A stretch of DNA of 64,000 nt from a virus. The position numbers and the translations under genes are program-made. This document shows, piece after piece, positions 18,491 to 40,769 of the stretch (position 1 is its first letter; each line of letters starts with the position of its first letter). The DNA lies in the IMG/VR virus record IMGVR_UViG_3300049855_000348, positions 1-64,000 of that record; one strand, written 5' to 3'. Under the pieces are notes generated by a model, which saw nothing but the letters and a program-made list of their open reading frames with translations, had not been told where the DNA came from and did no database searches.

Positions 18491-18565
18491 CGTCGAGTAT
18501 TTCAGCGGAAGAATATCTGCATGACATGCAGAAGGTCGGTGGTTCGATCCCACCCTCGACGACCA
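18491..18565 (+). tRNA. tRNA-Val(GAC)
   Basis: 75 nt. Acceptor cgtcgag/ctcgacg, T-arm ggtgg-ttcgatc-ccacc, anticodon arm tctgc-atGACat-gcaga, CCA encoded. Confidence 0.7.
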
Positions 18566-18570
18566 AACAA

Positions 18571-18648
18571 TGCGGAGTAACTGGAGATGGAACCAGCCCA
18601 GCCTCATAAGCTGAACAAACGTGTGTTCGAGTCACACCTCCGCAACCA
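18571..18648 (+). tRNA. tRNA-Met or Ile2 (CAT)
   Basis: 78 nt. Acceptor tgcggag/ctccgca, D-stem ctgg/ccag, anticodon loop ctCATaa, T-arm gtgtg-ttcgagt-cacac, CCA encoded. Confidence 0.7.
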
Positions 18649-18650
18649 TT

Positions 18651-18839
18651 TGCAAGGACCTCTCTGCCCACCATCTCGATCCTAAGAAGAAAGAAGACAA
18701 CATCGGTACGATGGTCAGAAGAAGAGTGGCTATCAAAACTTTGGAAATCGAACTGCAAAAGTGTCTCTGCGTGTGTGAGAACTGTCATCGCAAGATCCAT
18801 GCAGGTATCATCAAACCTTTTCTCAGTGCTGGATCATGA
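18651..18839 (+). pseudogene. HNH endonuclease remnant (HNH core only, no credible start)
   Basis: The frame reads ...SAHHLDPKKKEDNIG...CLCVCENCHRKIHAG.., the H-H...N...CxxCH..H core. There is no ATG upstream of the HH, and the ORF-track start lies inside the tRNA-Met. Confidence 0.5.
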
Positions 18840-18886
18840 CCGAACGCCTGTGGTCATTCCCTGGCGGGCACTCGGATTCTTCACAT

Positions 18887-18963
18887 GGTGGTCGTAGCTC
18901 AATGGATAGAGCACTGGACTGTGGCTCCAGCGGCTGTGGGTTCGACTCCCATCGATCACACCA
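18887..18963 (+). tRNA. tRNA-His(GTG)
   Basis: An extra 5' G (G-1), acceptor gtggtcg/cgatcac, D-arm gctc-aatggata-gagc, anticodon loop ctGTGgc, CCA encoded. Confidence 0.8.
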
Positions 18964-19047
18964 GTTCATTGTGCGGAGTACGCGCCTGACCCAGGCAAGA
19001 GGGTTTGCTCTAACCTCCCAGAGAAGAACGGGAGGTTGCTTCGGCAT

Positions 19048-19121
19048 GGCTTGGTCGCTCAACGGCAGGGCGCTGGTTTGAAAAACCAGAGACGAAGGTT
19101 CGACTCCTTCTCAAGCCACCA
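19048..19121 (+). tRNA. tRNA-Phe(GAA)
   Basis: 74 nt. Anticodon arm ctggt-ttGAAaa-accag, T-arm gaagg-ttcgact-ccttc, CCA encoded. Confidence 0.8.
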
Positions 19122-19133
19122 TCTCCTTCTCAC

Positions 19134-19211
19134 GGTCGGTTCACTGCATGGTGCAGTGTGCGCAAGGACAGTCCCCTAAGCACGGCGGTTCGATTCCCCG
19201 GCTGACCACCA
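19134..19211 (+). ncRNA. tRNA-like RNA A: normal acceptor, D-arm, T-loop and CCA but no canonical anticodon arm
   Basis: Acceptor ggtcggt/gctgacc and D-arm actg-catggtg-cagt. The 26 nt at the anticodon position form only gtgc/gcac around an 18-nt loop, gcAAGGacagtCCCCTAAgc. No 5-bp/7-nt arm is found in any register. Confidence 0.5.
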
Positions 19212-19221
19212 TTTTTTTCAT

Positions 19222-19294
19222 CGGCTGGAATAGGTGCGCGTAAGGCATCAGATCCCCTCAAGCGATGGAGGTTCGATTCCTCCCTGGCCGACCA
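19222..19294 (+). ncRNA. tRNA-like RNA B: 7-bp acceptor, T-arm and CCA with a 38-nt non-cloverleaf body
   Basis: Acceptor cggctgg/ctggccg and T-arm ggagg-ttcgatt-cctcc. The body contains cgc-GTAAGGcatcagatCCCCTCAA-gcg. Confidence 0.5.
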
Positions 19295-19407
19295 AGTACG
19301 ACTTCTCGGGTTCCGCAAGGAACGATCGTCCTACTGGCTACAACGGTGAAAATCCGGTGGATGCCAGAGGTGGTGGGATGGCTCACCAAATAAACTGAGA
19401 CTCATAA
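19295..19407 (+). ncRNA. structured spacer RNA (GNRA-capped helices), homologous at its 3' end to 19485..19592
   Basis: Helices gttcc-GCAA-ggaac, ctggc...gccag enclosing ccgg-tgaaaat-ccgg, and ggtg...cacc, followed by AAATAAACTGAGACT. Confidence 0.4.
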
Positions 19408-19484
19408 GCACCGATCGGCTGGTGGAAAAGCTACCTCCCTTTCAAGGAGATTCTTCGCGGGTTCGACTCCCGTTCGGTGTACCA
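19408..19484 (+). tRNA. tRNA-Glu(TTC)
   Basis: 77 nt. Acceptor gcaccga/tcggtgt, anticodon loop ctTTCaa, T-arm gcggg-ttcgact-cccgt, CCA encoded. Confidence 0.75.
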
Positions 19485-19592
19485 ACGACGGAGCACAGTG
19501 ATCGAAAGATCGACCGGCTAGGCAACTCGCAAGAGTGCTCGAAAGGGCGGAGTCTAGTGGGGTGTAAGCACCTCGAATAAACTGTGAGTTAT
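19485..19592 (+). ncRNA. structured spacer RNA (GAAA- and GCAA-capped helices)
   Basis: Helices gatc-GAAA-gatc, actc-GCAA-gagt, gagcac...gtgctc and ggtg-taag-cacc, followed by GAATAAACTGTGAGTT. Confidence 0.4.
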
Positions 19593-19666
19593 GGTCCTTT
19601 CTGTCAGTGGCAGGCAGCCTGATTCTCAGTCAGACAACGTCGGTTCGATTCCGACAAGGACTACCA
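19593..19666 (+). tRNA. tRNA-Glu(CTC)
   Basis: 74 nt. Acceptor ggtcctt/aaggact, D-arm tgtc-agtggca-ggca, anticodon loop ttCTCag, T-arm gtcgg-ttcgatt-ccgac, CCA encoded. Confidence 0.65.
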
Positions 19667-19670
19667 GCAA

Positions 19671-19766
19671 GAGCGGGACACTGGTTCGAGGCCAGTCATC
19701 GCAAGATGTAGCTCAGGGTGAAAACGTAAGGCATCAAACCCCCAAGTAATCCGGAAGAGCACGCTC
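19671..19766 (+). ncRNA. circularly permuted tRNA-like RNA X1 (T-arm, then GCAA-capped acceptor-like hairpin, then D-arm; the termini form the anticodon-like stem)
   Basis: GAGCG-ggac-ACTGG-ttcgagg-CCAGT-CATC-gcaa-GATG-ta-GCTC-[42-nt insert with GTAAGGcatcaaaCCCCCAAG]-GAGC-a-CGCTC. Every helix was read directly. Confidence 0.55.
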
Positions 19767-19771
19767 TATTT

Positions 19772-19849
19772 GTTCCTGAGGACTAACGGCTAGGTCACCT
19801 CCCTGTCACGGAGTCATTCAAGTGGGTTCAACTCCCATCAGGAACGCCA
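19772..19849 (+). tRNA. tRNA-Asp(GTC)
   Basis: 78 nt. Acceptor gttcctg/caggaac, anticodon loop ctGTCac, T-arm gtggg-ttcaact-cccat, CCA encoded. Confidence 0.75.
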
Positions 19850-19853
19850 ACAT

Positions 19854-19927
19854 CCACGCTTCGTCTAATGGCAGGGCACCGATCTGATACGTCGGATACC
19901 AAGGTTCGATTCCTTGAGCGTGGACCA
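19854..19927 (+). tRNA. tRNA-Ile(GAT)
   Basis: 74 nt. Acceptor ccacgct/agcgtgg, anticodon arm ccgat-ctGATac-gtcgg, T-arm caagg-ttcgatt-ccttg, CCA encoded. Confidence 0.75.
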
Positions 19928-19941
19928 CTTCAGTTTCACAT

Positions 19942-20016
19942 TGTGGGATGGCCTATGTGGTAGGGCACCCGGTTGTTACCCGGACTATACTGGTTCGACT
20001 CCAGTTCCCACAGCCA
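19942..20016 (+). tRNA. tRNA-Asn(GTT)
   Basis: 75 nt. Acceptor tgtggga/tcccaca, anticodon loop ttGTTac, T-arm actgg-ttcgact-ccagt, CCA encoded. Confidence 0.75.
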
Positions 20017-20021
20017 CTTTT

Positions 20022-20097
20022 GGGGTCGTAGCTCAATTGGCAGAGCACCTGTTTTGCACGCAGGATGTTAGCGGTTCAAGTCCGCTCGATTCCACCA
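20022..20097 (+). tRNA. tRNA-Ala(TGC)
   Basis: 76 nt. G3:T70 wobble present, anticodon arm cctgt-ttTGCac-gcagg, CCA encoded. Confidence 0.8.
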
Positions 20098-20167
20098 CGC
20101 GGGAGTAATCTGAGAAATCAGAGAGAATTACCAGCCTCACAGCCGGCAAGGAGTAGACTGTGGTTTT

Positions 20168-20243
20168 GGGGAGTTAGCTCATCTGGTAGAGCGCGAGCAT
20201 GGCATGTTCGAGGCGAGGAGTTCAAGTCTCCTACTCTCCACCA
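20168..20243 (+). tRNA. tRNA-Ala(GGC)
   Basis: 76 nt. G3:T70 wobble present, anticodon arm cgagc-atGGCat-gttcg, CCA encoded. Confidence 0.75.
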
Positions 20244-20602
20244 CTTTCAATCATACGGGCGGCGATATCTCAGAAGCGTAAGGATGATCCCCCAAGTTAT
20301 GAGAAAATCCTATGGGGTGAAAGCCCTCAACTGTCCACCACTCGATCGGAACGTCAGTCGCAGCGTAAGGCTTTTATCAAATCCCCAAGCTGTGCAGTAA
20401 CGCAACTGCTGGTGAAAGACCAGCCTGATCACTCTTCAAACGAAACCCTGGCGGTGAAAAACCGCTTCCTCGGCGCATCCCCTACGTTGGTCTACCTCTG
20501 AAGTTTATCGACCCAGGGCTTCGTGTTTCTGCTAGCTAGATTCATGGGTACCATCAGCGACATCGACGATCAACTCTACGTTCAGCACATCAAGTAACGC
20601 AT
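20244..20602 (+). ncRNA. about 360-nt non-tRNA structured region rich in GNRA-capped helices, with two copies of the GTAAGG..CCCCAAG loop motif
   Basis: Helices gggt-GAAA-gccc, gctggt-GAAA-gaccagc, gcggt-gaaaa-accgc, gcagt-aacgca-actgc and cagc-[GTAAGGcttttatcaaatCCCCAA]-gctg. The only ORFs are short and overlap tRNAs. Confidence 0.4.
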
Positions 20603-20677
20603 ACGTCGATAGCTCCAATGTAGAGCGACGGTTTCCAAAACCGTTGGTTGGGGGTTCAAGTCCCTCTCGACGTGCCA
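20603..20677 (+). tRNA. tRNA-Trp(CCA)
   Basis: 75 nt. Acceptor acgtcga/tcgacgt, anticodon arm acggt-ttCCAaa-accgt, CCA end encoded. Confidence 0.8.
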
Positions 20678-20682
20678 TTCAC

Positions 20683-20757
20683 TGAGAGATAGTTCAACGG
20701 TAGAACGCTGCCCTCTGGAGGCAGATGCTAGAGGTTCGAGTCCTCTTCTCTCAACCA
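20683..20757 (+). tRNA. tRNA-Gln(CTG)
   Basis: 75 nt. Anticodon arm ctgcc-ctCTGga-ggcag, T-arm agagg-ttcgagt-cctct, CCA encoded. Confidence 0.8.
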
Positions 20758-20760
20758 CAC

Positions 20761-20835
20761 TCAGGAATAGTTCAACGGTAGAACGCTGACCTTTGGAGTC
20801 AGTTGCTCCAGGTTCGAGTCCTGGTTCCTGAACCA
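20761..20835 (+). tRNA. tRNA-Gln(TTG)
   Basis: 75 nt. Anticodon arm ctgac-ctTTGga-gtcag, T-arm ccagg-ttcgagt-cctgg, CCA encoded. Confidence 0.8.
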
Positions 20836-20843
20836 TTTCACAT

Positions 20844-20922
20844 CTGCGTGTAGCTCAGCCTGGAACAGAGCACTTGCCTTGGGAGCAAGGGGTCGGAGGT
20901 TCAAATCCTCTCACGTAGACCA
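20844..20922 (+). tRNA. tRNA-Pro(TGG)
   Basis: 79 nt. Anticodon arm cttgc-ctTGGga-gcaag, T-arm ggagg-ttcaaat-cctct, CCA encoded. Confidence 0.8.
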
Positions 20923-20927
20923 TTCAT

Positions 20928-21009
20928 GACGGTCGAGTCGAAAGTCGGGCGCTCCGGCATCAGATTGCAACCCTGATGACAGGTGGTTGAACTCCACCGA
21001 TCGTCTCCA
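20928..21009 (+). tRNA. tRNA-Cys(GCA) with an enlarged (about 14-nt) D-loop
   Basis: 82 nt. Acceptor gacggtc/gatcgtc, D-stem gtcg/cggc, anticodon loop ttGCAac with an A:C at the 31:39 pair, T-arm ggtgg-ttgaact-ccacc, CCA encoded. Confidence 0.55.
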
Positions 21010-21014
21010 TTCAC

Positions 21015-21090
21015 GTGTGTGTATCTCAGTGGCTAGAGAGCTTCCTTGCCAAGGAAGAGGTCGCAGGTTCAAGTCCTGTCACACACTCCA
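21015..21090 (+). tRNA. tRNA-Gly(GCC)
   Basis: 76 nt. Anticodon arm cttcc-ttGCCaa-ggaag, CCA encoded. Confidence 0.8.
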
Positions 21091-21092
21091 AC

Positions 21093-21161
21093 AGGGGCAA
21101 ATGCGGGTTCAACTCCCGCTGCGACTTCGGTCGTATCGTCTAACCCGGTAGGACGGCCCCA
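21093..21161 (+). ncRNA. circularly permuted tRNA-like core X2 (T-arm, then UUCG-capped acceptor-like hairpin, then D-arm); further helices extend to about 21282
   Basis: aGGGG-caaat-GCGGG-ttcaact-CCCGC-t-GCGAC-ttcg-GTCGT-at-CGTC-taacccggtag-GACG-g-CCCC. Downstream helices are ccgtgcgg/ccgcacgg and ccgctc/gagcgg. Confidence 0.5.
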
Positions 21162-21282
21162 CCCCGTGCGGATTGGATACCCGCACGGAATCCGAAGTCC
21201 TCAGGTTCAAGCCAAGGCAACCGCTCGCCGAGCGGAATACAAAATGCGGCTAGAGCAGGGGAGCACGAACGTGGCCCCGTTT

Positions 21283-21356
21283 GCCGATGTAGGTCAATGG
21301 TAGATCTGCTGCCTTCCAAGCAGAGGACGCGGGTTCGATTCCCGCCATCGGCTCCA
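21283..21356 (+). tRNA. tRNA-Gly(TCC)
   Basis: 74 nt. Acceptor gccgatg/catcggc, anticodon loop ctTCCaa, T-arm gcggg-ttcgatt-cccgc, CCA encoded. Confidence 0.8.
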
Positions 21357-21360
21357 TCAT

Positions 21361-21436
21361 GTGTGCCTAGCTCAATGGATAGAGCATCTGACTACGGATC
21401 AGAAGGTTGAAGGTTCGAGTCCTTCGGTACACGCCA
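21361..21436 (+). tRNA. tRNA-Arg(ACG)
   Basis: 76 nt. Anticodon arm tctga-ctACGga-tcaga, T-arm gaagg-ttcgagt-ccttc, CCA encoded. Confidence 0.8.
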
Positions 21437-21469
21437 TTGCATAGCGATCTTTTTGGCTAGCATGTAACC

Positions 21470-21997
21470 ATGTCACTCAAAGATGCCCTCTTTCACTTTC
21501 GTGATCTTGGTTACTACGTTGATGATCAAGGAAATGTATTCAACCCAAGAGGAAAGATTCTTCGGTGTTCAACAAACAAAGATGGTTACAAAAGAATTAC
21601 CACAAGAATGAGAAATCATCCAGTTCATGGGGATTGGTGCCCTAAGGTTGAGGTTCACCGTCTTGCCGGTTATCAGAAGTTCGGAGACAAAATCTTCACC
21701 GAAGGACTTGAGATCTGTCACGATGATGGCGATAAGCGAAACAACGCCAAAGACAATCTGCGACTCGATACGCACAAAAGTAATATGATGGATGTTCCTC
21801 AAGAGGTAAGGATCAATAGAGCAAGACGTGCTGGTAGAGAACATGCCAAGCTAACAGATGAGCAGGTTGCTCACATTCGTTCATCTGGCATGACTCTGAA
21901 ACAGATCATGCAAACATACGGTATCAGTAAGTCTGGTGCCTCCTACGTCAGATCAGGAAAGACTTACGCCAGCCCGTGTATCCCCTCGCTTTCCTAA
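21470..21997 (+). CDS. HNH (HNH_3-type) homing endonuclease with a C-terminal HTH
   Basis: 175 aa with ...GYKRITT...EVHRLAGYQKFG...EICHDDGDKRNNAKDNLRLDTHKSN.. and LTDEQVAHIRSSGMTLKQIMQTYGISKSG. The gene is AT-richer than its surroundings and is embedded in the tRNA array. Confidence 0.75.
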   Translation: MSLKDALFHFRDLGYYVDDQGNVFNPRGKILRCSTNKDGYKRITTRMRNHPVHGDWCPKVEVHRLAGYQKFGDKIFTEGLEICHDDGDKRNNAKDNLRLDTHKSNMMDVPQEVRINRARRAGREHAKLTDEQVAHIRSSGMTLKQIMQTYGISKSGASYVRSGKTYASPCIPSLS

Positions 21998-22051
21998 AGC
22001 GGTGAAAGGGTAACTGGACACATGCAGGTTCAAATCCTGCCTCGGGTACCA
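21972..22051 (+). ncRNA. atypical tRNA-like RNA E1 (possible tRNA-Arg(CCT) lacking a D-arm)
   Basis: Acceptor gcccgtg/ctcgggt (one T:T mismatch), then 7 nt, then arm tcgct-ttCCTaa-agcgg, then 21 nt, then T-arm gcagg-ttcaaat-cctgc and A-CCA. Its 5' end overlaps the HNH gene's 3' end. Confidence 0.4.
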
Positions 22052-22054
22052 CAT

Positions 22055-22132
22055 CGGGGTCCTAGTACGGGAGTGTCTGCATACCATTCGGTCACTACAG
22101 CCTCGGCGGTTCAATCCCGCCAACCTCGACCA
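22055..22132 (+). ncRNA. tRNA-like RNA with acceptor, T-arm and CCA but a long hairpin in place of the D and anticodon arms
   Basis: Acceptor cggggtc/aacctcg (6 of 7 pairs) and T-arm ggcgg-ttcaatc-ccgcc. The body forms agtgtctg-cataccatt-cggtcact, an 8-bp stem with a T:T mismatch and a 9-nt loop. Confidence 0.4.
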
Positions 22133-22135
22133 CAT

Positions 22136-22211
22136 GCGATCGTATTTCAATTGGAAGAACACCACCCTCCGAAGGTGGAAGGTGCAGGTTCGAGTCCTGC
22201 CGATCGCGCCA
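22136..22211 (+). tRNA. tRNA-Arg(CCG)
   Basis: 76 nt. Anticodon arm ccacc-ctCCGaa-ggtgg, T-arm gcagg-ttcgagt-cctgc, CCA encoded. Confidence 0.8.
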
Positions 22212-22214
22212 TCT

Positions 22215-22290
22215 GGTGACGTAGCTCAATGGACAGAGCTTCCAGCTTCTACCTGGATGGTTGGAGGTTCGAGTCCTCCCGTCATCGCCA
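22215..22290 (+). tRNA. tRNA-Arg(TCT)
   Basis: 76 nt. Anticodon arm tccag-ctTCTac-ctgga, T-arm ggagg-ttcgagt-cctcc, CCA encoded. Confidence 0.8.
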
Positions 22291-22294
22291 TCAT

Positions 22295-22369
22295 GCTGCC
22301 ATAGCCGAGTGGTAAGGCACTTCATTCGTAACGAAGAGACCGGGTGTTCGATTCACCCTGGCAGCACCA
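22295..22369 (+). tRNA. tRNA-Thr(CGT)
   Basis: 75 nt. Acceptor gctgcca/tggcagc, anticodon loop ttCGTaa, T-arm gggtg-ttcgatt-caccc, CCA encoded. Confidence 0.7.
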
Positions 22370-22373
22370 TCAC

Positions 22374-22449
22374 GCCCCCATAGCTCAGTTGGTAGAGCAA
22401 CAGTTTTGTAAACTGTAGGTCGTCGGTTCGATCCCGACTGGTGGCTCCA
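22374..22449 (+). tRNA. tRNA-Thr(TGT)
   Basis: 76 nt. Anticodon arm acagt-ttTGTaa-actgt, T-arm gtcgg-ttcgatc-ccgac, CCA encoded. Confidence 0.8.
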
Positions 22450-22456
22450 TTTTCAC

Positions 22457-22530
22457 GCTGCTATAGTTCAGTGGTAAAACACGTCCTTGGTAAGGACGAG
22501 CCCCAGGTTCAATTCCTGGTAGCAGCACCA
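22457..22530 (+). tRNA. tRNA-Thr(GGT)
   Basis: 74 nt. Anticodon arm cgtcc-ttGGTaa-ggacg, T-arm ccagg-ttcaatt-cctgg, CCA encoded. Confidence 0.8.
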
Positions 22531-22535
22531 TTCAT

Positions 22536-22611
22536 CCATCAGTAGCGTAATTGGCAGCGCAGCGGGTTTTTACCCCGTGGGTTGTGAGTTCGACTCTCAC
22601 CTGATGGACCA
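22536..22611 (+). tRNA. tRNA-Lys(TTT)
   Basis: 76 nt. Anticodon arm gcggg-ttTTTac-cccgt, T-arm gtgag-ttcgact-ctcac, CCA encoded. Confidence 0.8.
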
Positions 22612-22617
22612 TCGCAT

Positions 22618-22693
22618 GCATCCATAGCTCAACTGGCAGAGCACTCGGTTCTTACCCAAGGGGTTGGAGGTTCAAATCCTCCTGGATGCACCA
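22618..22693 (+). tRNA. tRNA-Lys(CTT)
   Basis: 76 nt. Acceptor gcatcca/tggatgc, anticodon loop ttCTTac, T-arm ggagg-ttcaaat-cctcc, CCA encoded. Confidence 0.75.
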
Positions 22694-22707
22694 TCATTAC
22701 ATAAGTC

Positions 22708-22941
22708 ATGCCAGCATGGAAATGGATGATCCTGAAGTTCTGTACCAGAGCGCATTTCATGCGGCTCATAGCAACCTTGATCATCCTCATCGCAGGCTTT
22801 CAATCTCTCTACTACCAGAAGATTGAAGACACGTGGTTGATCCTGGTTGGTGCAGTGATGAACCACTACTTCAACCACAAAGAAGCTGCGAACGTCACGG
22901 AAGAAGACAAGAATCCGGACGACGAATGCAAGGTCGGTTAG
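22708..22941 (+). CDS. small two-TM membrane protein (hypothetical) inside the tRNA array
   Basis: 77-aa ORF with two hydrophobic segments (LIATLIILIAGF and WLILVGAVM). Its 3' end overlaps the next tRNA by 10 nt. Confidence 0.4.
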   Translation: MPAWKWMILKFCTRAHFMRLIATLIILIAGFQSLYYQKIEDTWLILVGAVMNHYFNHKEAANVTEEDKNPDDECKVG

Positions 22942-23006
22942 TTCAGCGGTAGAACGCTTCTCTTACACGGAAGATGTCGGGGGTTCGATCCCCTCACCGA
23001 CTACCA
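22932..23006 (+). tRNA. tRNA-Val(TAC)
   Basis: 75 nt. Acceptor ggtcggt/accgact, anticodon arm cttct-ctTACac-ggaag, T-arm ggggg-ttcgatc-ccctc, CCA encoded. Confidence 0.8.
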
Positions 23007-23011
23007 CTTGC

Positions 23012-23091
23012 CGGTCTGTATCGGCTCGGTCTTATAAGCCGTCGAAACCGTAATTGGTTACATGAGGGTTCGACTCCCTCCAGACCGACCA
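23012..23091 (+). ncRNA. atypical tRNA-like RNA E2 (possible tRNA-Ile(TAT) lacking a D-arm); same architecture as E1
   Basis: Perfect acceptor cggtctg/cagaccg, then 8 nt, then arm cggt-ctTATaa-gccg, then 22 nt with an aacc/ggtt hairpin, then T-arm gaggg-ttcgact-ccctc and A-CCA. It lies immediately upstream of an HNH gene. Confidence 0.4.
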
Positions 23092-23126
23092 CAAGGCTTC
23101 CACGATTCCCCTCCAAGGAGAACGCC

Positions 23127-23678
23127 ATGGCACCCGGTGCCTGCATAGTGCTGAACAACTCGTATGCCTTCCTCTCGATCAACAACTGGTTCGAGGCGAT
23201 GCGTCTCGTCGTCCGTGGCCGCGCCGTGCCGCTGGCAAACTACGAGACCAAGATCCGGGCAGAGCGTGAAGAGTTCGACGCACCAGCAGTCGTGATGCTG
23301 AAGCACCACGTGAACCTGGGGCGGAGAAGGCAACCTTTCACCCTGCCATCACATCGCAACATCTGGGTCCGTGATGGTGGGCACTGCGCCTACTGCAATC
23401 ACCCGCTGACGCTGCGGACAGTGACCAAGGAACACGTGATGCCCAGGTCACGCGGTGGAGAAGACAGCCTCTTGAACGTCGTGTCCGCCTGTGGCGACTG
23501 CAACGCCAAGAAGTCGAACCGCACGCCGGCAGAAGCCGGCATGAAGTTCCGTGACGGCATCGAACTGCGTCACCTCAACGATGAGGAGAAGCTGACGGTG
23601 CTGCTCAAGACCTCCCAGAGCCACGAACGGAAGACGTGGCTGGGGTTCCTCAAGAAGCAGGGTCTGACGCTGTTCTGA
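23127..23678 (+). CDS. HNH endonuclease (McrA-like)
   Basis: ATG at 23127 after AAGGAGAA. Motifs CAYCNH...EHVMPRSRGGEDSLLNVVSACGDCNAKKSN are present. The longer ORF-track start at 22974 runs through tRNAs and was rejected. Confidence 0.75.
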   Translation: MAPGACIVLNNSYAFLSINNWFEAMRLVVRGRAVPLANYETKIRAEREEFDAPAVVMLKHHVNLGRRRQPFTLPSHRNIWVRDGGHCAYCNHPLTLRTVTKEHVMPRSRGGEDSLLNVVSACGDCNAKKSNRTPAEAGMKFRDGIELRHLNDEEKLTVLLKTSQSHERKTWLGFLKKQGLTLF

Positions 23679-23896: not shown

Positions 23897-24578
23897 TCAC
23901 TCCATCAAGCCGTCCAGGTCCCCCTTCATCCAAGCACGCACCGTGATGGATCGCCCTGTGCGGTGGTCCCTCACGTTGTCGTTCTGCACCTGGATGGTGC
24001 GGATCTTGTCACCACGCTCGCCGGAGCCTATCTGCTGCCGGCGATCGTCGTTTTGATCGGTATGGTGTTGGGTAGCGATGCCCCCCGCCAGACGCTCCTG
24101 TAACAGGGCCATGGCAGCATGCTTGTTCGACAACTGGTGGCGCTCTTTGTCGGCACGGACAGTCATGCCCGTCGGACGATGGGTGATCTGCACACCCGAC
24201 TCAGTCTTGTTGCGGTGCTGACCACCTGGGCCAGATCCACGGACGGTGATGATATCCAGGTCGCGTTCATCCAGCACGAACTTCTGCTGCTGGCTTCCAT
24301 CGATCACCGCCACGGTGACCGTCGAGCTATGGACACGACCCTTGCGCTCAGTGGGTGGAACCCGCTGCCAACGATGGCCGCCTGCTTCTTGGCTGAAGGC
24401 TTCTTTGGCTCCCTTACCAGTAACGGTGAGCCGCAGAAAGCCGTGAGACTCTTGATCCACTACAACTTCAAAGACCCCTCCGCGCTCCCCATTTGCGATA
24501 GATGGTGAGGTGTTCGCGCACGAGCAATCGTGCGTCCTCGCCGCCTTCAGCGGCTCTGATTTCGAGGTGGATAGTCAT
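23897..24578 (-). CDS. RF1-like peptide chain release factor lacking domain 1; needs a +1 ribosomal frameshift at CTT TGA: join(24578..24471, 24469..23897) on the minus strand
   Basis: Frame 0 reads MTIHLEIRAAEGGEDARLLVREHLTIYRKWGARRGL then TGA. The +1 frame continues EVVVDQESHGF...GGHRWQRVPPTERKGRVHSSTVTVAV...GSGPGGQHRNKTESGV (a PxT-like PPT and the GGQ motif). The slip site is cGGAGGGGT CTT TGA A. Confidence 0.8.
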
Positions 24579-24584
24579 GACGGG

Positions 24585-24612
24585 CTTGTAGCAGGTGGGT
24601 GACTAGATTCAA
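24585..24612 (-). promoter_or_regulatory. weak promoter-like element with leaderless geometry for the release-factor gene
   Basis: Minus strand reads TTGAAT-N16-TACAAG-cccgtc-ATG. The -10 is poor (it ends in G) but the spacing matches the class I promoters. Confidence 0.3.
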
Positions 24613-24619
24613 CGAGCAC

Positions 24620-24647
24620 TTGACATAGACCTTTTGGTCGCTAATAG
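24620..24647 (+). promoter_or_regulatory. class I promoter with leaderless geometry
   Basis: TTGACATAGACcttttgGTCGCTAATAG. The ATG at 24654 is 7 nt after the -10. Confidence 0.75.
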
Positions 24648-24653
24648 TAAGCC

Positions 24654-24872
24654 ATGGCAAGCGATCCGCAGCAGATCTCAATCGACAAACAGATCGAGCA
24701 ATCTCGCATCATCAAGAATCTGACTGCCAACAACAATCAGCTTCGCTCGGCGCTCAAGAAGTGCCTCAACGTGTTGAGTGGTGAGGATCTAAATAAGGAT
24801 TGTCTGATCAGGGCTTTAGAAGCCGGTCGAGACGCCTTGCAGAACCAAAAAACACAGAAGAAAAAATCATGA
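24654..24872 (+). CDS. hypothetical early protein
   Basis: 72-aa ORF starting at the predicted +1. Confidence 0.55.
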   Translation: MASDPQQISIDKQIEQSRIIKNLTANNNQLRSALKKCLNVLSGEDLNKDCLIRALEAGRDALQNQKTQKKKS

Positions 24873-39878: not shown

Positions 39879-39967
39879 TGGCGGAAGTGGCACGAATCGA
39901 ACGTGCAAGACCCGTGAAGGTCTGTTGAGGTTCAAGCTCAGTCCCCTCGCCTATAGGGAGCACTTCC
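39879..39967 (-). tRNA. tRNA-Ser(TGA), class II
   Basis: 89 nt. Acceptor ggaagtg/cacttcc, anticodon loop ctTGAac, long variable arm agacc-ttcac-gggtct, T-arm gcacg-ttcgatt-cgtgc, CCA encoded. Confidence 0.75.
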
Positions 39968-39972
39968 ATGAA

Positions 39973-40064
39973 TGGCGGATACGGCAGGATTTGAACCTGC
40001 GGGTGACTTGCGCCACCTCCTAGTTTCGAGCTAGGTGCGATAAGCCGGGCTCTGCCACGTATCC
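39973..40064 (-). tRNA. tRNA-Ser(CGA), class II
   Basis: 92 nt. Anticodon arm cctag-ctCGAaa-ctagg, long variable arm, CCA encoded. Confidence 0.75.
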
Positions 40065-40069
40065 ATGAA

Positions 40070-40162
40070 TGGCGGATTGCTAGGGAGTCGGACCCTCAAC
40101 GTGTTTCCACGTTTCATCGCTTTCCAGGCGAGTACGGTTAGCCACCACCGTCAACACAATCC
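40070..40162 (-). tRNA. tRNA-Ser(GGA), class II
   Basis: 93 nt. Anticodon loop ctGGAaa, variable arm aacgtg-gaaa-cacgtt, T-loop tccgact, CCA encoded. Confidence 0.65.
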
Positions 40163-40167
40163 ATGAA

Positions 40168-40259
40168 TGGCGGAACGGGTGAGATTTGAACTCACGGGTG
40201 ACTTTCGCCACCTCTTCCTTAGCAAGGAAGTGCAATAGGCCAGACTCTGCCACCGTTCC
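40168..40259 (-). tRNA. tRNA-Ser(GCT), class II
   Basis: 92 nt. Anticodon arm cttcc-ttGCTaa-ggaag, long variable arm, CCA encoded. Confidence 0.75.
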
Positions 40260-40263
40260 ATGA

Positions 40264-40347
40264 TGGTCTCTGAGGTGGGACTCGAACCCACAAAGCTGCG
40301 ATGTTTAGGACCGCAAGGTGTGCCATTCCCTATGAAGCCACTCAGAG
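40264..40347 (-). tRNA. tRNA-Leu(TAA)-like, atypical (C at position 33, long D region, short variable loop)
   Basis: 84 nt. Acceptor ctctgag/ctcagag, anticodon arm gcggt-ccTAAac-atcgc, T-arm gtggg-ttcgagt-cccac, A73, CCA encoded. Confidence 0.5.
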
Positions 40348-40351
40348 AAGT

Positions 40352-40429
40352 TGGTGTCCCATGCAGGAGTCGAACCTGCAAAGATCTGCATTTTGAATGC
40401 AGCGCGTCTGCCAATTGCGCCAATGGGAC
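40352..40429 (-). tRNA. tRNA-Leu(CAA) with a short (6-nt) variable loop
   Basis: 78 nt. Leu-type D-arm tggcgcaattggcagacgcg, anticodon arm ctgca-ttCAAaa-tgcag, A73, CCA encoded. Confidence 0.65.
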
Positions 40430-40430
40430 G

Positions 40431-40507
40431 TGGTATCCACGAAGAGATTTGAACTCTTACTGTTCGGTGCCTAAGACCGATGCCTCTGCCGGTTGGGCTA
40501 CGTGGAC
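40431..40507 (-). tRNA. tRNA-Leu(TAG) with a short (5-nt) variable loop
   Basis: 77 nt. Anticodon arm tcggt-ctTAGgc-accga, T-arm aagag-ttcaaat-ctctt, A73, CCA encoded. Confidence 0.65.
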
Positions 40508-40513
40508 GTGAAA

Positions 40514-40599
40514 TGGTGGGATAGGCTGGAGTCGAACCAACAGTGGCGGTGAAGCGTCACGTTTACAGCGTGGTGAGCCTTCCAATGCTCAACTATCCC
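40514..40599 (-). tRNA. tRNA-Tyr(GTA), class II
   Basis: 86 nt. Acceptor gggatag/ctatccc, D-arm gagc/gctc, anticodon loop ctGTAaa, 15-nt variable arm, CCA encoded. Confidence 0.75.
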
Positions 40600-40609
40600 A
40601 GATGAAAAA

Positions 40610-40688
40610 TGGTACCCGTGACAGGAGTCGAACCTGCAATTTTACTACCACCTCAAGGTAGCGCGTCTGCCAATTTCGCCACACGGGC
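40610..40688 (-). tRNA. tRNA-Leu(GAG) with a short (7-nt) variable loop
   Basis: 79 nt. D-arm tggcgaaattggcagacgcg, anticodon arm ctacc-ttGAGgt-ggtag, A73, CCA encoded. Confidence 0.65.
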
Positions 40689-40691
40689 ATG

Positions 40692-40769
40692 TGGTACCGG
40701 GGGCGGGAGTCGAACCCGCAAAGAACATGGACCTGAACCATGCGCGTCTGCCTGTTTCGCCACCCCGGC
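40692..40769 (-). tRNA. tRNA-Leu(CAG) with a short (6-nt) variable loop
   Basis: 78 nt. D-arm tggcgaaacaggcagacgcg, anticodon arm catgg-ttCAGgt-ccatg, A73, CCA encoded. Confidence 0.65.

Follow-up and report, generated by a model that had tools for sequence, protein, structure and literature searches.

A short RF1-type release factor gene of large phages and Myxococcota, probably expressed through a prfB-like +1 frameshift

Introduction

How can a phage produce a release factor from a gene whose reading frame is closed by a stop codon after 36 codons? This question is raised by a minus-strand gene in the IMG/VR virus record IMGVR_UViG_3300049855_000348, of which positions 1–64,000 were analyzed (hereafter, the window, i.e., the whole 64 kb stretch of DNA). 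The window belongs to a tailed phage, encoding DNA polymerase (phrog_405, E=3.5e-172), helicase, and baseplate wedge proteins. The gene in question encodes, in two successive frames, a short homolog of peptide chain release factor 1 (RF1), and the junction of the frames resembles that of prfB, the gene of release factor 2 (RF2). The autoregulatory +1 frameshift of prfB, a textbook case of a gene sensing its own product, was reportedly described by Craigen and Caskey in 1986 and by Baranov et al. in 2002. We consider it likely that the window gene is also expressed by programmed +1 ribosomal frameshifting. Its sequence relatives appear to form a widespread family of RF1-type factors without domain 1 in large phages and Myxococcota, the synthesis of which would depend on passing an early stop codon, most often by a convergently evolved prfB-type +1 frameshift.

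Gene Anatomy and the Shift Site

The first open reading frame (ORF0, 36 codons) is stopped by TGA at 24470..24468 of the minus strand, and the +1 frame begins at GAA 24469..24467 (Table 1). The junction, cgGGAGGggtCTTTGAagt, reads CGG AGG GGT CTT TGA A, with GGT as a 3-nt spacer between GGAGG, a Shine–Dalgarno (SD)-like element and putative frameshift stimulator, and the CTT codon. The joined product is 226 aa long, and the peptide across the predicted shift junction is GLEVVVDQESHGFLR.

Homology to release factors runs through both frames. The 36-residue piece alone matches positions 106–138 of the RF1 model (E=1.7e-4) and positions 102–134 of Pfam PCRF. The joined product is colinear with positions 106–335 of 347 of the NCBIfam RF1 model (E=1.2e-59); the matches to the RF2 and PrfH models have E-values of 6e-38 and 8e-25, respectively, and every score is under the full-length cut-offs. 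Pfam domains PCRF (residues 3–89) and RF-1 (residues 99–206, E=2.1e-26) were recognized in the joined product. The shift site, at codon 36, falls within domain 2, at approximately position 139 of the RF1 model. These results bear out a sequence-only reading of this DNA made earlier, which had proposed an ATG at 24578 opening 36 codons similar to the start of release factor domain 2, an interruption by TGA with continuation in the +1 frame (open from 24469 to 23897), a junction of the prfB style, and a shift site in domain 2 rather than at the prfB position.

No in-frame start codon was found 5' of ATG 24578, and a divergent ORF (24654..24872) starts 76 nt upstream of the gene, leaving no space for release factor domain 1. 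In the window and in nearly all short relatives, no more than a few codons separate the start codon from the beginning of homology. No Shine–Dalgarno sequence is present before ATG 24578; a conserved GCTACAAGC is located about 8 nt upstream of it.

Table 1. Coordinates of the release factor gene elements, tRNA arrays, and HNH endonuclease genes in the window
Feature	Position	Strand	Remarks
ORF0	24471..24578	-	ATG at 24578 and 35 more codons, MTIHLEIRAAEGGEDARLLVREHLTIYRKWGARRGL; from sequence and translation
Internal SD-like GGAGG	24481..24477	-	Made by the Arg-Arg codons CGG AGG; 3 nt 5' of CTT
Shift site CTT TGA	24473..24468	-	P-site Leu codon CTT, 24473..24471; in-frame sensor TGA, 24470..24468
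+1-frame ORF	23897..24469	-	190 codons and terminator TGA 23899..23897; rest of domain 2, GGQ domain 3, domain 4
PPT tripeptide, P74-P75-T76	24350..24358	-	Within QRV-PPT-E...GRVHSS; RF1-type PxT reading head
GGQ, G118-G119-Q120	24218..24226	-	Peptidyl-tRNA hydrolysis motif, within GPGGQHRNKTES
tRNA array, 26 genes	18491-23006	+	
HNH endonuclease gene	21470-21997	+	Inside the tRNA array; the two HNH genes are Pfam HNH_3 and HNH_5
HNH endonuclease gene	22974-23678	+	At the array end, between the array and the release factor gene
tRNA array, 8 genes	39879-40769	-	

Structure and Identity of the Product

The joined sequence was modeled with AlphaFold2 from an alignment of 50 sequences; the mean predicted local distance difference test score (pLDDT) was 90.2, with values of 94–97 across the junction. 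The same values of 94–97 characterize the strand of residues 2–11 and the helix of residues 14–33 in the ORF0-encoded part; ORF0 supplies strand beta-1 and the long helix of domain 2, which starts with E11-G12-G13. In RF1–ribosome structures, the tip of the helix starting with EGG contacts the first base of the stop codon. Since beta-1 and this helix are encoded by ORF0, the 187-aa product proposed by gene callers would miss part of the reading head, and, according to the model, the upstream ORF is structurally required for the factor.

The joined model was superimposed on the ribosome-bound RF1 domains 2–4 (9mtr, 4v63) with a template modeling (TM) score of 0.92 and a root-mean-square deviation of 1.8 Å; its TM score with the PrfH structure (9mor) was 0.64. 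The family profile scored 248 bits with RF1, 162 with RF2, and 87 with PrfH chains of the PDB. The reading head is of the RF1 type (Q-R-V, P-P-T-E, G-R-V-H-S-S), and the GGQ motif is intact in the window protein and invariant across the 50-sequence family alignment. Profile and structural comparisons thus confirm the predicted product as an RF1-type class I release factor that comprises domains 2, 3, and 4 and lacks domain 1, and the view of its codon recognition as RF1-like, not RF2-like, was correct. Domain 1 is the part of the protein that interacts with RF3 and the L11 stalk. As judged from its composition, the factor would probably act at UAA and UAG, releasing peptides there with no need of recycling by RF3.

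Across the family, the reading head is otherwise RF1-type (Q-R-V/I, PPT-E, R-V-H/Q-T-S) and the same whatever the sensor stop, i.e., the stop codon at the shift site. In each recoding class, PPT occurs more often than any other tripeptide. About 30% of family members have N, S, or G in place of the Thr of PxT, the residue by which RF1 discriminates the second base of a stop codon.

Two other identities were considered for the protein. The sequence-only reading had noted the missing domain 1, in which it was right (the RF1 match starts from model position 106), and a likeness to PrfH, which proved to be confined to that feature: PrfH identity is ruled out by the absence of RtcB, the RF1-like head, the score below the cut-off, and the weaker structural match. 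ArfB/ICT1 identity is ruled out as well, as the ArfB match is limited to residues 97–132 and domains 2 and 4 are present.

Conservation of the Shift Cassette

Of the 406 relatives found in IMG/VR, 80 were kept; further loci came from JGI metagenomes and from GTDB, with each species represented by one genome. In total, 239 non-redundant genes were classified, of which 137 require a +1 shift. Because the sample was ranked by similarity to the frameshift-type query, its proportions, such as the share of about 90% for recoded genes among the short ones, should not be taken as a census.

CTT directly precedes the stop in 136 of the 137 shift loci, vastly more often than chance would give, and the stop lies at codons 36–39 in 128 of these 137 loci. 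The sensor is TGA in 102 loci (74%), TAG in 30 (22%), and TAA in 5 (4%), and the following base is C in 107/137 (78%). GGAGG is located exactly 3 nt 5' of CTT in 69/137 loci, and GGAG at 3–4 nt in 20 more (about 89 in total). The element is built from an Arg-Arg dipeptide that is usual in RF1 proteins at this place (ARRW in E. coli). Arg at codon -2 is encoded by AGG in 74 of 77 cases (96%), compared to 7.7% of Arg codons elsewhere in the same genes, and Arg at codon -3 by CGG in 94 of 107 (88%), compared to 19% elsewhere. This codon bias indicates that selection acts on the RNA sequence, beyond the protein alone. Shift-type relatives reach down to about 40% protein identity.

The closest relatives are L027 (ERR3494970) and L028 (SRR26786767), which come from separate sequencing runs and have about 85% DNA identity with the window, with many substitutions. 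Both retain GCGCGGAGGGGTCTTTGA and the same two-frame structure, including the CTT TGA junction. The first 111 nt of the gene (24468-24578, from ATG through the shift site) are 97–99% identical among the three sequences, and each subsequent 111-nt block, 76–92%. The predicted RNA fold of the first 111 nt was no better than that of shuffled sequences (z = -0.45), so that structure does not explain this conservation. Within the intergenic stretch that separates the gene from the divergent ORF (24579-24653), a block, TATTAGCGACCAAAAGGTCTATGTCAA, is kept in both close relatives; it holds a sigma-70-like TTGACA-17-AATAGT on the plus strand (24620..24648).

A blastn search with 1.8 kb around the gene gave no match among deposited phages, and the joined products were missing from a collection of about 15 billion proteins. 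RefSeq and GenBank carry just the 188-aa post-shift ORF, named "peptide chain release factor-like protein" or "Peptide chain release factor 1". In Archangium gephyra (L117; NZ_CP102578, 5001-5679) and Minicystis rosea (L125; CP016211, 4998-5661), the deposited 188-aa proteins (WP_375772009 and APR79142, respectively) start after the shift site, and neither the 36-codon upstream ORF nor the frameshift is annotated.

Variation of Recoding across the Family

A quick distance (neighbor-joining) tree, for which full-length prfA served as the root, places the short genes in a single clade, within which phage and myxobacterial sequences are interleaved. About 18 changes among the shift, in-frame-stop, and uninterrupted states occurred within this clade, together with about 30 further switches of the sensor stop. 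In 59 genes, an early in-frame stop is found in place of the shift, at five or more positions within codons 33–50; about seven of these genes are ordinary full-length prfA of code-4 or code-25 organisms, and the rest are short. In three genes (L019, L153, L184), a CTT TGA shift is located at codon 46, where sister genes have an in-frame TGA. The re-invention or movement of the device at codon 46 and its replacement by in-frame stops suggest selection for "a stop to get past" and not for one particular sequence.

The TGA at codon 35 aligns with a Trp (TGG) of E. coli RF1 and of the uninterrupted relative L214; if tRNA-Trp decoded this TGA as a near-cognate codon, the ancestral residue would be recovered. 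In one subclade, the early in-frame stops come in pairs with a spacing of 8 codons, either TGA then TAG (L052, L221, L246) or TGA then TGA (L044, L081, L197, L198, L201, L205), and in these dual-stop genes TGG encodes the conserved Trp and TAA is the terminator. No single reassigned code fits the genes with one TGA and one TAG. In those in-frame-stop genes that have Trp at the conserved GGHRWQR position, its codon is always TGG, never TGA, and seven of the in-frame-stop genes (L006, L008, L098, L100, L107, L212, L225) also end in TGA.

The genetic code was also assessed by the lengthening of flanking ORFs with TGA read as sense, in loci with G+C content of 0.50 or less, with Mycoplasma and Gracilibacteria as controls. 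Most of these loci had ratios of 1.0–1.7, compared to 1.1–1.3 in standard-code controls and 2.5–5.3 in Mycoplasma and Gracilibacteria; frameshift-class negative controls were noisy (0.96–3.44), and L263, L091, and L054 were ambiguous. A comparison of codes 11, 4, and 15 by their ORF coverage gave no information in GC-rich DNA, where dropping TGA inflates ORFs everywhere. No tRNA with the UCA anticodon was found in the window or any locus. Several lines of sequence evidence thus show that in most short in-frame-stop genes the early stop is probably specific to the release factor gene. Selenocysteine at the in-frame TGAs was rejected, as the positions are variable and non-catalytic and TAG occurs at the same places; no search for selenocysteine insertion sequence (SECIS) elements was made.

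The median G+C content was 0.61 for frameshift types and 0.44 for readthrough types. TAG sensors were found in 14 of 46 cellular genomes vs. 4 of 47 viral contigs, and no link between the sensor stop and the reading-head tripeptide was detected across the family. Two uninterrupted genes, L089 and L124, hold an intact cassette out of frame (GGAGGGGTCTTTGAC and GGAGGGAGCTTTGAC, respectively), which points to a second, upstream indel restoring one frame or to an assembly error. The CTT TAG shift-type gene of L024 (3001-5606) has an apparent interruption of about 2.1 kb between query residues ~104 and ~101-152, which could be an inserted element, an intron, an intein, or a rearrangement.

Proposed Mechanism and Alternatives

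Since the cassette matches that of prfB point for point, a prfB-like mechanism is the economical reading. Ribosomes would initiate at ATG 24578 and read 36 codons; once CUU occupies the P site and UGA the A site, GGAGG located 3 nt upstream would pair with the anti-SD sequence of 16S rRNA. If RF2 is slow to recognize UGA, the peptidyl-tRNA-Leu would re-pair from CUU to UUU, and translation in the +1 frame would yield the 226-aa factor; if RF2 acts first, a 36-residue peptide would be released and no factor would be made. The outcome being set by competition with RF2, more of the factor should be made when there is less capacity for termination at the sensor stop. UAA is read by RF1-type and RF2-type factors alike, so that extra RF1-type activity may free RF2 for UGA and lower frameshifting, and UAA sharing would in this way close an indirect feedback loop. 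A feedback logic of "communicating vessels" was proposed for prfB (PMC7530605, section 14). Because the product, by its sequence, should read UAA and UAG, and the sensor is UGA, the window sensor would report host RF2; the earlier proposal that an RF1-type gene with UGA as its sensor would report on RF2 and not on its own product matches the sequence evidence.

Several points weigh against programmed frameshifting as a regulatory device of this gene. The ranking of the sample over-represents the frameshift-type clade. In the window, the sensor is followed by A, the weak-termination C being absent here (the close relative L028 has C), and about 29 shift-type relatives have no recognizable SD-like element. 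Uninterrupted short relatives exist, many of them in a large protein search, so gating is dispensable. If the factor reads only UAA and UAG, the UGA sensor would not be direct autoregulation, and the benefit to the phage is not obvious, as TGA terminates 31 of the 52 long ORFs of the window, being the commonest terminator, and the release factor gene itself.

A broader role may be proposed only tentatively and strikes us as doubtful: the short factors could be a termination-stress-inducible, RF3-independent back-up, switched on by failed termination at the sensor stop through either frameshift or near-cognate readthrough. If this were true, large phages and Myxococcota would keep termination going when host release factors are depleted or attacked. 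In the strongest form of this proposal, the PPT/PPN head is broadened and one bacterial-type factor reads all three stops; TGA, TAG, TAA, and dual TGA and TAG sensors would then all be self-sensors. In both forms, release factor genes regulated by readthrough, which were hypothesized decades ago and were unknown as of 2016, would be on record for the first time in bacteria or phages.

Direct autoregulation, in which a factor with broadened specificity itself recognizes UGA, and maybe all three stops, as in prfB, is less probable still, and we regard it as unlikely. The use of all three sensor stops with their frequent switches on the tree, the three relatives with TGA and TAG 8 codons apart, and the Thr replacements in the PxT motif are in its favor; TAG has never been seen as a sensor in prfB (8,164 genomes), and the tie between sensor and specificity thus looks different here. 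However, the reading head is otherwise RF1-type for every sensor stop, the family profile clearly prefers RF1 to RF2, and RF2 evolved toward omnipotence causes toxic termination at UGG (PMC7530605).

Frameshifting would be superfluous if the downstream ORF started at GTG 24460 (187 aa), with GGAGG as its ribosome-binding site and the 36-codon ORF as a leader or remnant. This ORF appears in the ORF listing, annotation pipelines call such a product (e.g., RefSeq WP_375772009), and GGAGG is indeed upstream of GTG. Its distance from GTG is 16 nt, though, too long a spacing for it to act as a ribosome-binding site. RF1 homology persists in the upstream ORF, where the gene is most highly conserved, the nearly invariant CTT before the stop plays no role in re-initiation, and the reading head of the 187-aa product would be without strand beta-1 and the helix starting with EGG. 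We therefore consider an internal start very unlikely.

A sequencing or assembly indel, or a decaying pseudogene, is even harder to accept. One extra T in the CTTT run would give such a pattern, and prfA "pseudogenes" in bacterial surveys were judged to be likely errors; yet the same junction is present in the independent assemblies with 85% DNA identity, and 136 further loci agree, including complete chromosomes of cultured Myxococcota. The gene has no other disruptions, and both of its parts are under purifying constraint. The chance that TGA is a sense codon in the phage or its host, through code 4 or 25 or the recoding of late genes, is practically negligible: stop-codon-recoded phages do encode release factors and in-frame TGA variants occur among the relatives, but frame-0 readthrough meets a stop after 17 unrelated codons, the homology carries on solely in the +1 frame, TGA is the usual terminator of the window ORFs, and UCA-anticodon tRNAs are absent from the window and all loci. 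Transcriptional slippage was rejected, since the T run is just 3 nt.

Genomic Context and Distribution

The window contains 34 tRNA genes (33 detected by ARAGORN and 1 by Rfam only), fewer than the approximately 40 claimed by the sequence-only reading; no suppressor tRNA was found among them with these two tools. The Rfam-only tRNA (19772..19846, 42.9 bits), missed by ARAGORN, has an anticodon loop read as CUGUCAC, which corresponds to tRNA-Asp(GUC). The set includes tRNA-Leu(GAG), the reader of the shift-site CUU. The tRNA gene closest to the release factor gene ends 891 nt from its 3' end. HNH endonuclease and unknown genes are the neighbors of the release factor gene in the window, and a related HNH gene adjoins it in six other loci, e.g., L131.

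tRNA genes are located within 2.8 kb of the release factor gene in 45% of IMG/VR loci. No conserved partner gene was found: the top neighbor family occurs in 10 of about 220 loci, and no RtcB-like cluster is among the clusters listed. tRNA-Trp(CCA) adjoins the release factor gene in L012 (1511-1587, 10 nt downstream), L006 (4981-5054), L212 (2129-2204), and L184 (4866-4941), and three of these four genes have an in-frame TGA; with tRNA-Trp near the gene in 3 of 54 in-frame-TGA loci vs. 3 of 137, the numbers are too few for an association. tRNAs with the CUA anticodon (amber-reading, labeled tRNA-Pyl by ARAGORN) lie in L231 (2158-2232) and L139 (6554-6626), within a few kb of release factor genes whose sensor is TGA.

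The best INPHARED matches were the huge phages of Al-Shayeb et al.; in the passages of that paper covered by the search, RF1 and RF2 are named as translation genes of phages, with no mention of their mode of expression. The earlier, phage-based view is widened by cellular genomes: the family is also present in ordinary chromosomal settings of Myxococcota. Among the relatives in general, TAG and TAA serve as sensors too, and in-frame stops occur with no shift. In total, 46 shift-type genes were found in cellular assemblies, mostly of Myxococcota (about 38, an approximate count), including the complete chromosomes of cultured Archangium gephyra and Minicystis rosea. Their neighbors in Myxococcota are ordinary cellular genes (glycosyltransferase, DUF1569, extracytoplasmic function (ECF) sigma factor, GDSL lipase, radical S-adenosylmethionine (SAM) enzyme), and the context on a Thiobacillus scaffold is a phage-like array of 31 tRNAs.

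Significance

If the proposed mechanism is correct, the cassette of prfB has evolved a second time, in an RF1-type paralog, at another position, and with all three stops. The family would then be a natural experiment on whether the sensor responds to the factor itself or to total termination capacity, whether an RF1 without domain 1 terminates in vivo, and why tRNA-rich large phages and Myxococcota retain an extra gated release factor. It is directly testable because cultured Myxococcota (Archangium, Minicystis) are included. A practical consequence concerns annotation pipelines, which deposit a shortened 188-aa product for genes of this family.

Comparison with Known Systems

RF1 (PrfA) is the best match of the window protein in both sequence and structure and shares with it the PxT-type reading head, GGQ, and domains 2–4. 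The window protein is about 105 residues shorter, and its score of 202 bits falls below the NCBIfam equivalog cut-off of 400; the family tripeptide is nearly always of the PPT form, apart from the members with a replaced Thr. The family gene is recoded, whereas prfA has no known feedback control or frameshift (PMC12421855, PMC7530605).

PrfH (RFH) is likewise a class I release factor homolog of about 200–230 aa without domain 1, sporadic and horizontally mobile (PMC1586002). It differs in having RtcB as an immediate upstream neighbor in the same orientation (the RtcB2-PrfH rescue module), which was absent from the listed clusters of about 220 family loci, and in an Arg after the tripeptide, where the window protein has Glu. 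With TIGR03072, the window protein reaches a score of 87.6, short of the 166.65 cut-off.

Phages with recoded stop codons also encode RF1 or RF2, often near tRNA genes, and these factors were proposed to manipulate termination (bioRxiv 10.1101/2021.08.26.457843). Their genes are described there as using the standard code and standing beside suppressor tRNAs, with no frameshift mentioned; the window, by contrast, shows no recoding of other genes and no suppressor tRNA. The eRF1 of giant viruses (cited in PMC5009743) is similar in being a virus-encoded class I release factor whose synthesis needs stop-codon recoding, but it relies on readthrough and frameshift with other signals, is of the eukaryote/archaeal type with an unrelated fold, and belongs to viruses of amoebae. 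This eRF1 is the sole viral case cited in the review by Atkins et al. (2016), according to which an early in-frame UGA with same-frame continuation was not found in any RF2 gene, and the UAG/RF1-gene counterpart "is also unknown".

We found no published description of a frameshift-gated short RF1-type factor in the literature covered, which lay mostly outside subscription journals. In the passages covered by term searches, Baranov et al. 2006 (PMC1586002) and Burroughs and Aravind 2019 mention neither phages nor a frameshift outside prfB. A 2025 survey of more than 12,000 bacterial genomes reported no convincing prfA frameshift and no TAG in 8,164 prfB motifs (PMC12421855).

The closest parallel is prfB itself. 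The order of the cassette is the same (SD-like element, 3-nt spacer, CUU, in-frame stop, usually C, +1 ORF), and both products are class I release factors whose output is, or in the family would be, coupled to termination capacity. The sensors of prfB are TGA in 98.6%, the rest being TAA and never TAG, in contrast to the broader set of stops in the family, the commonest of which, UGA, is by sequence non-cognate to the encoded factor; in sister clades of the family, in-frame stops replace the shift. The window gene is a different paralog, RF1-type without domain 1 and not RF2, and its site lies at codon 36 in domain 2, whereas that of prfB is at approximately codon 26 in domain 1 of RF2. The different paralog and position, together with the conserved RF1 Arg-Arg dipeptide on which the element is built, point to an origin independent of prfB.

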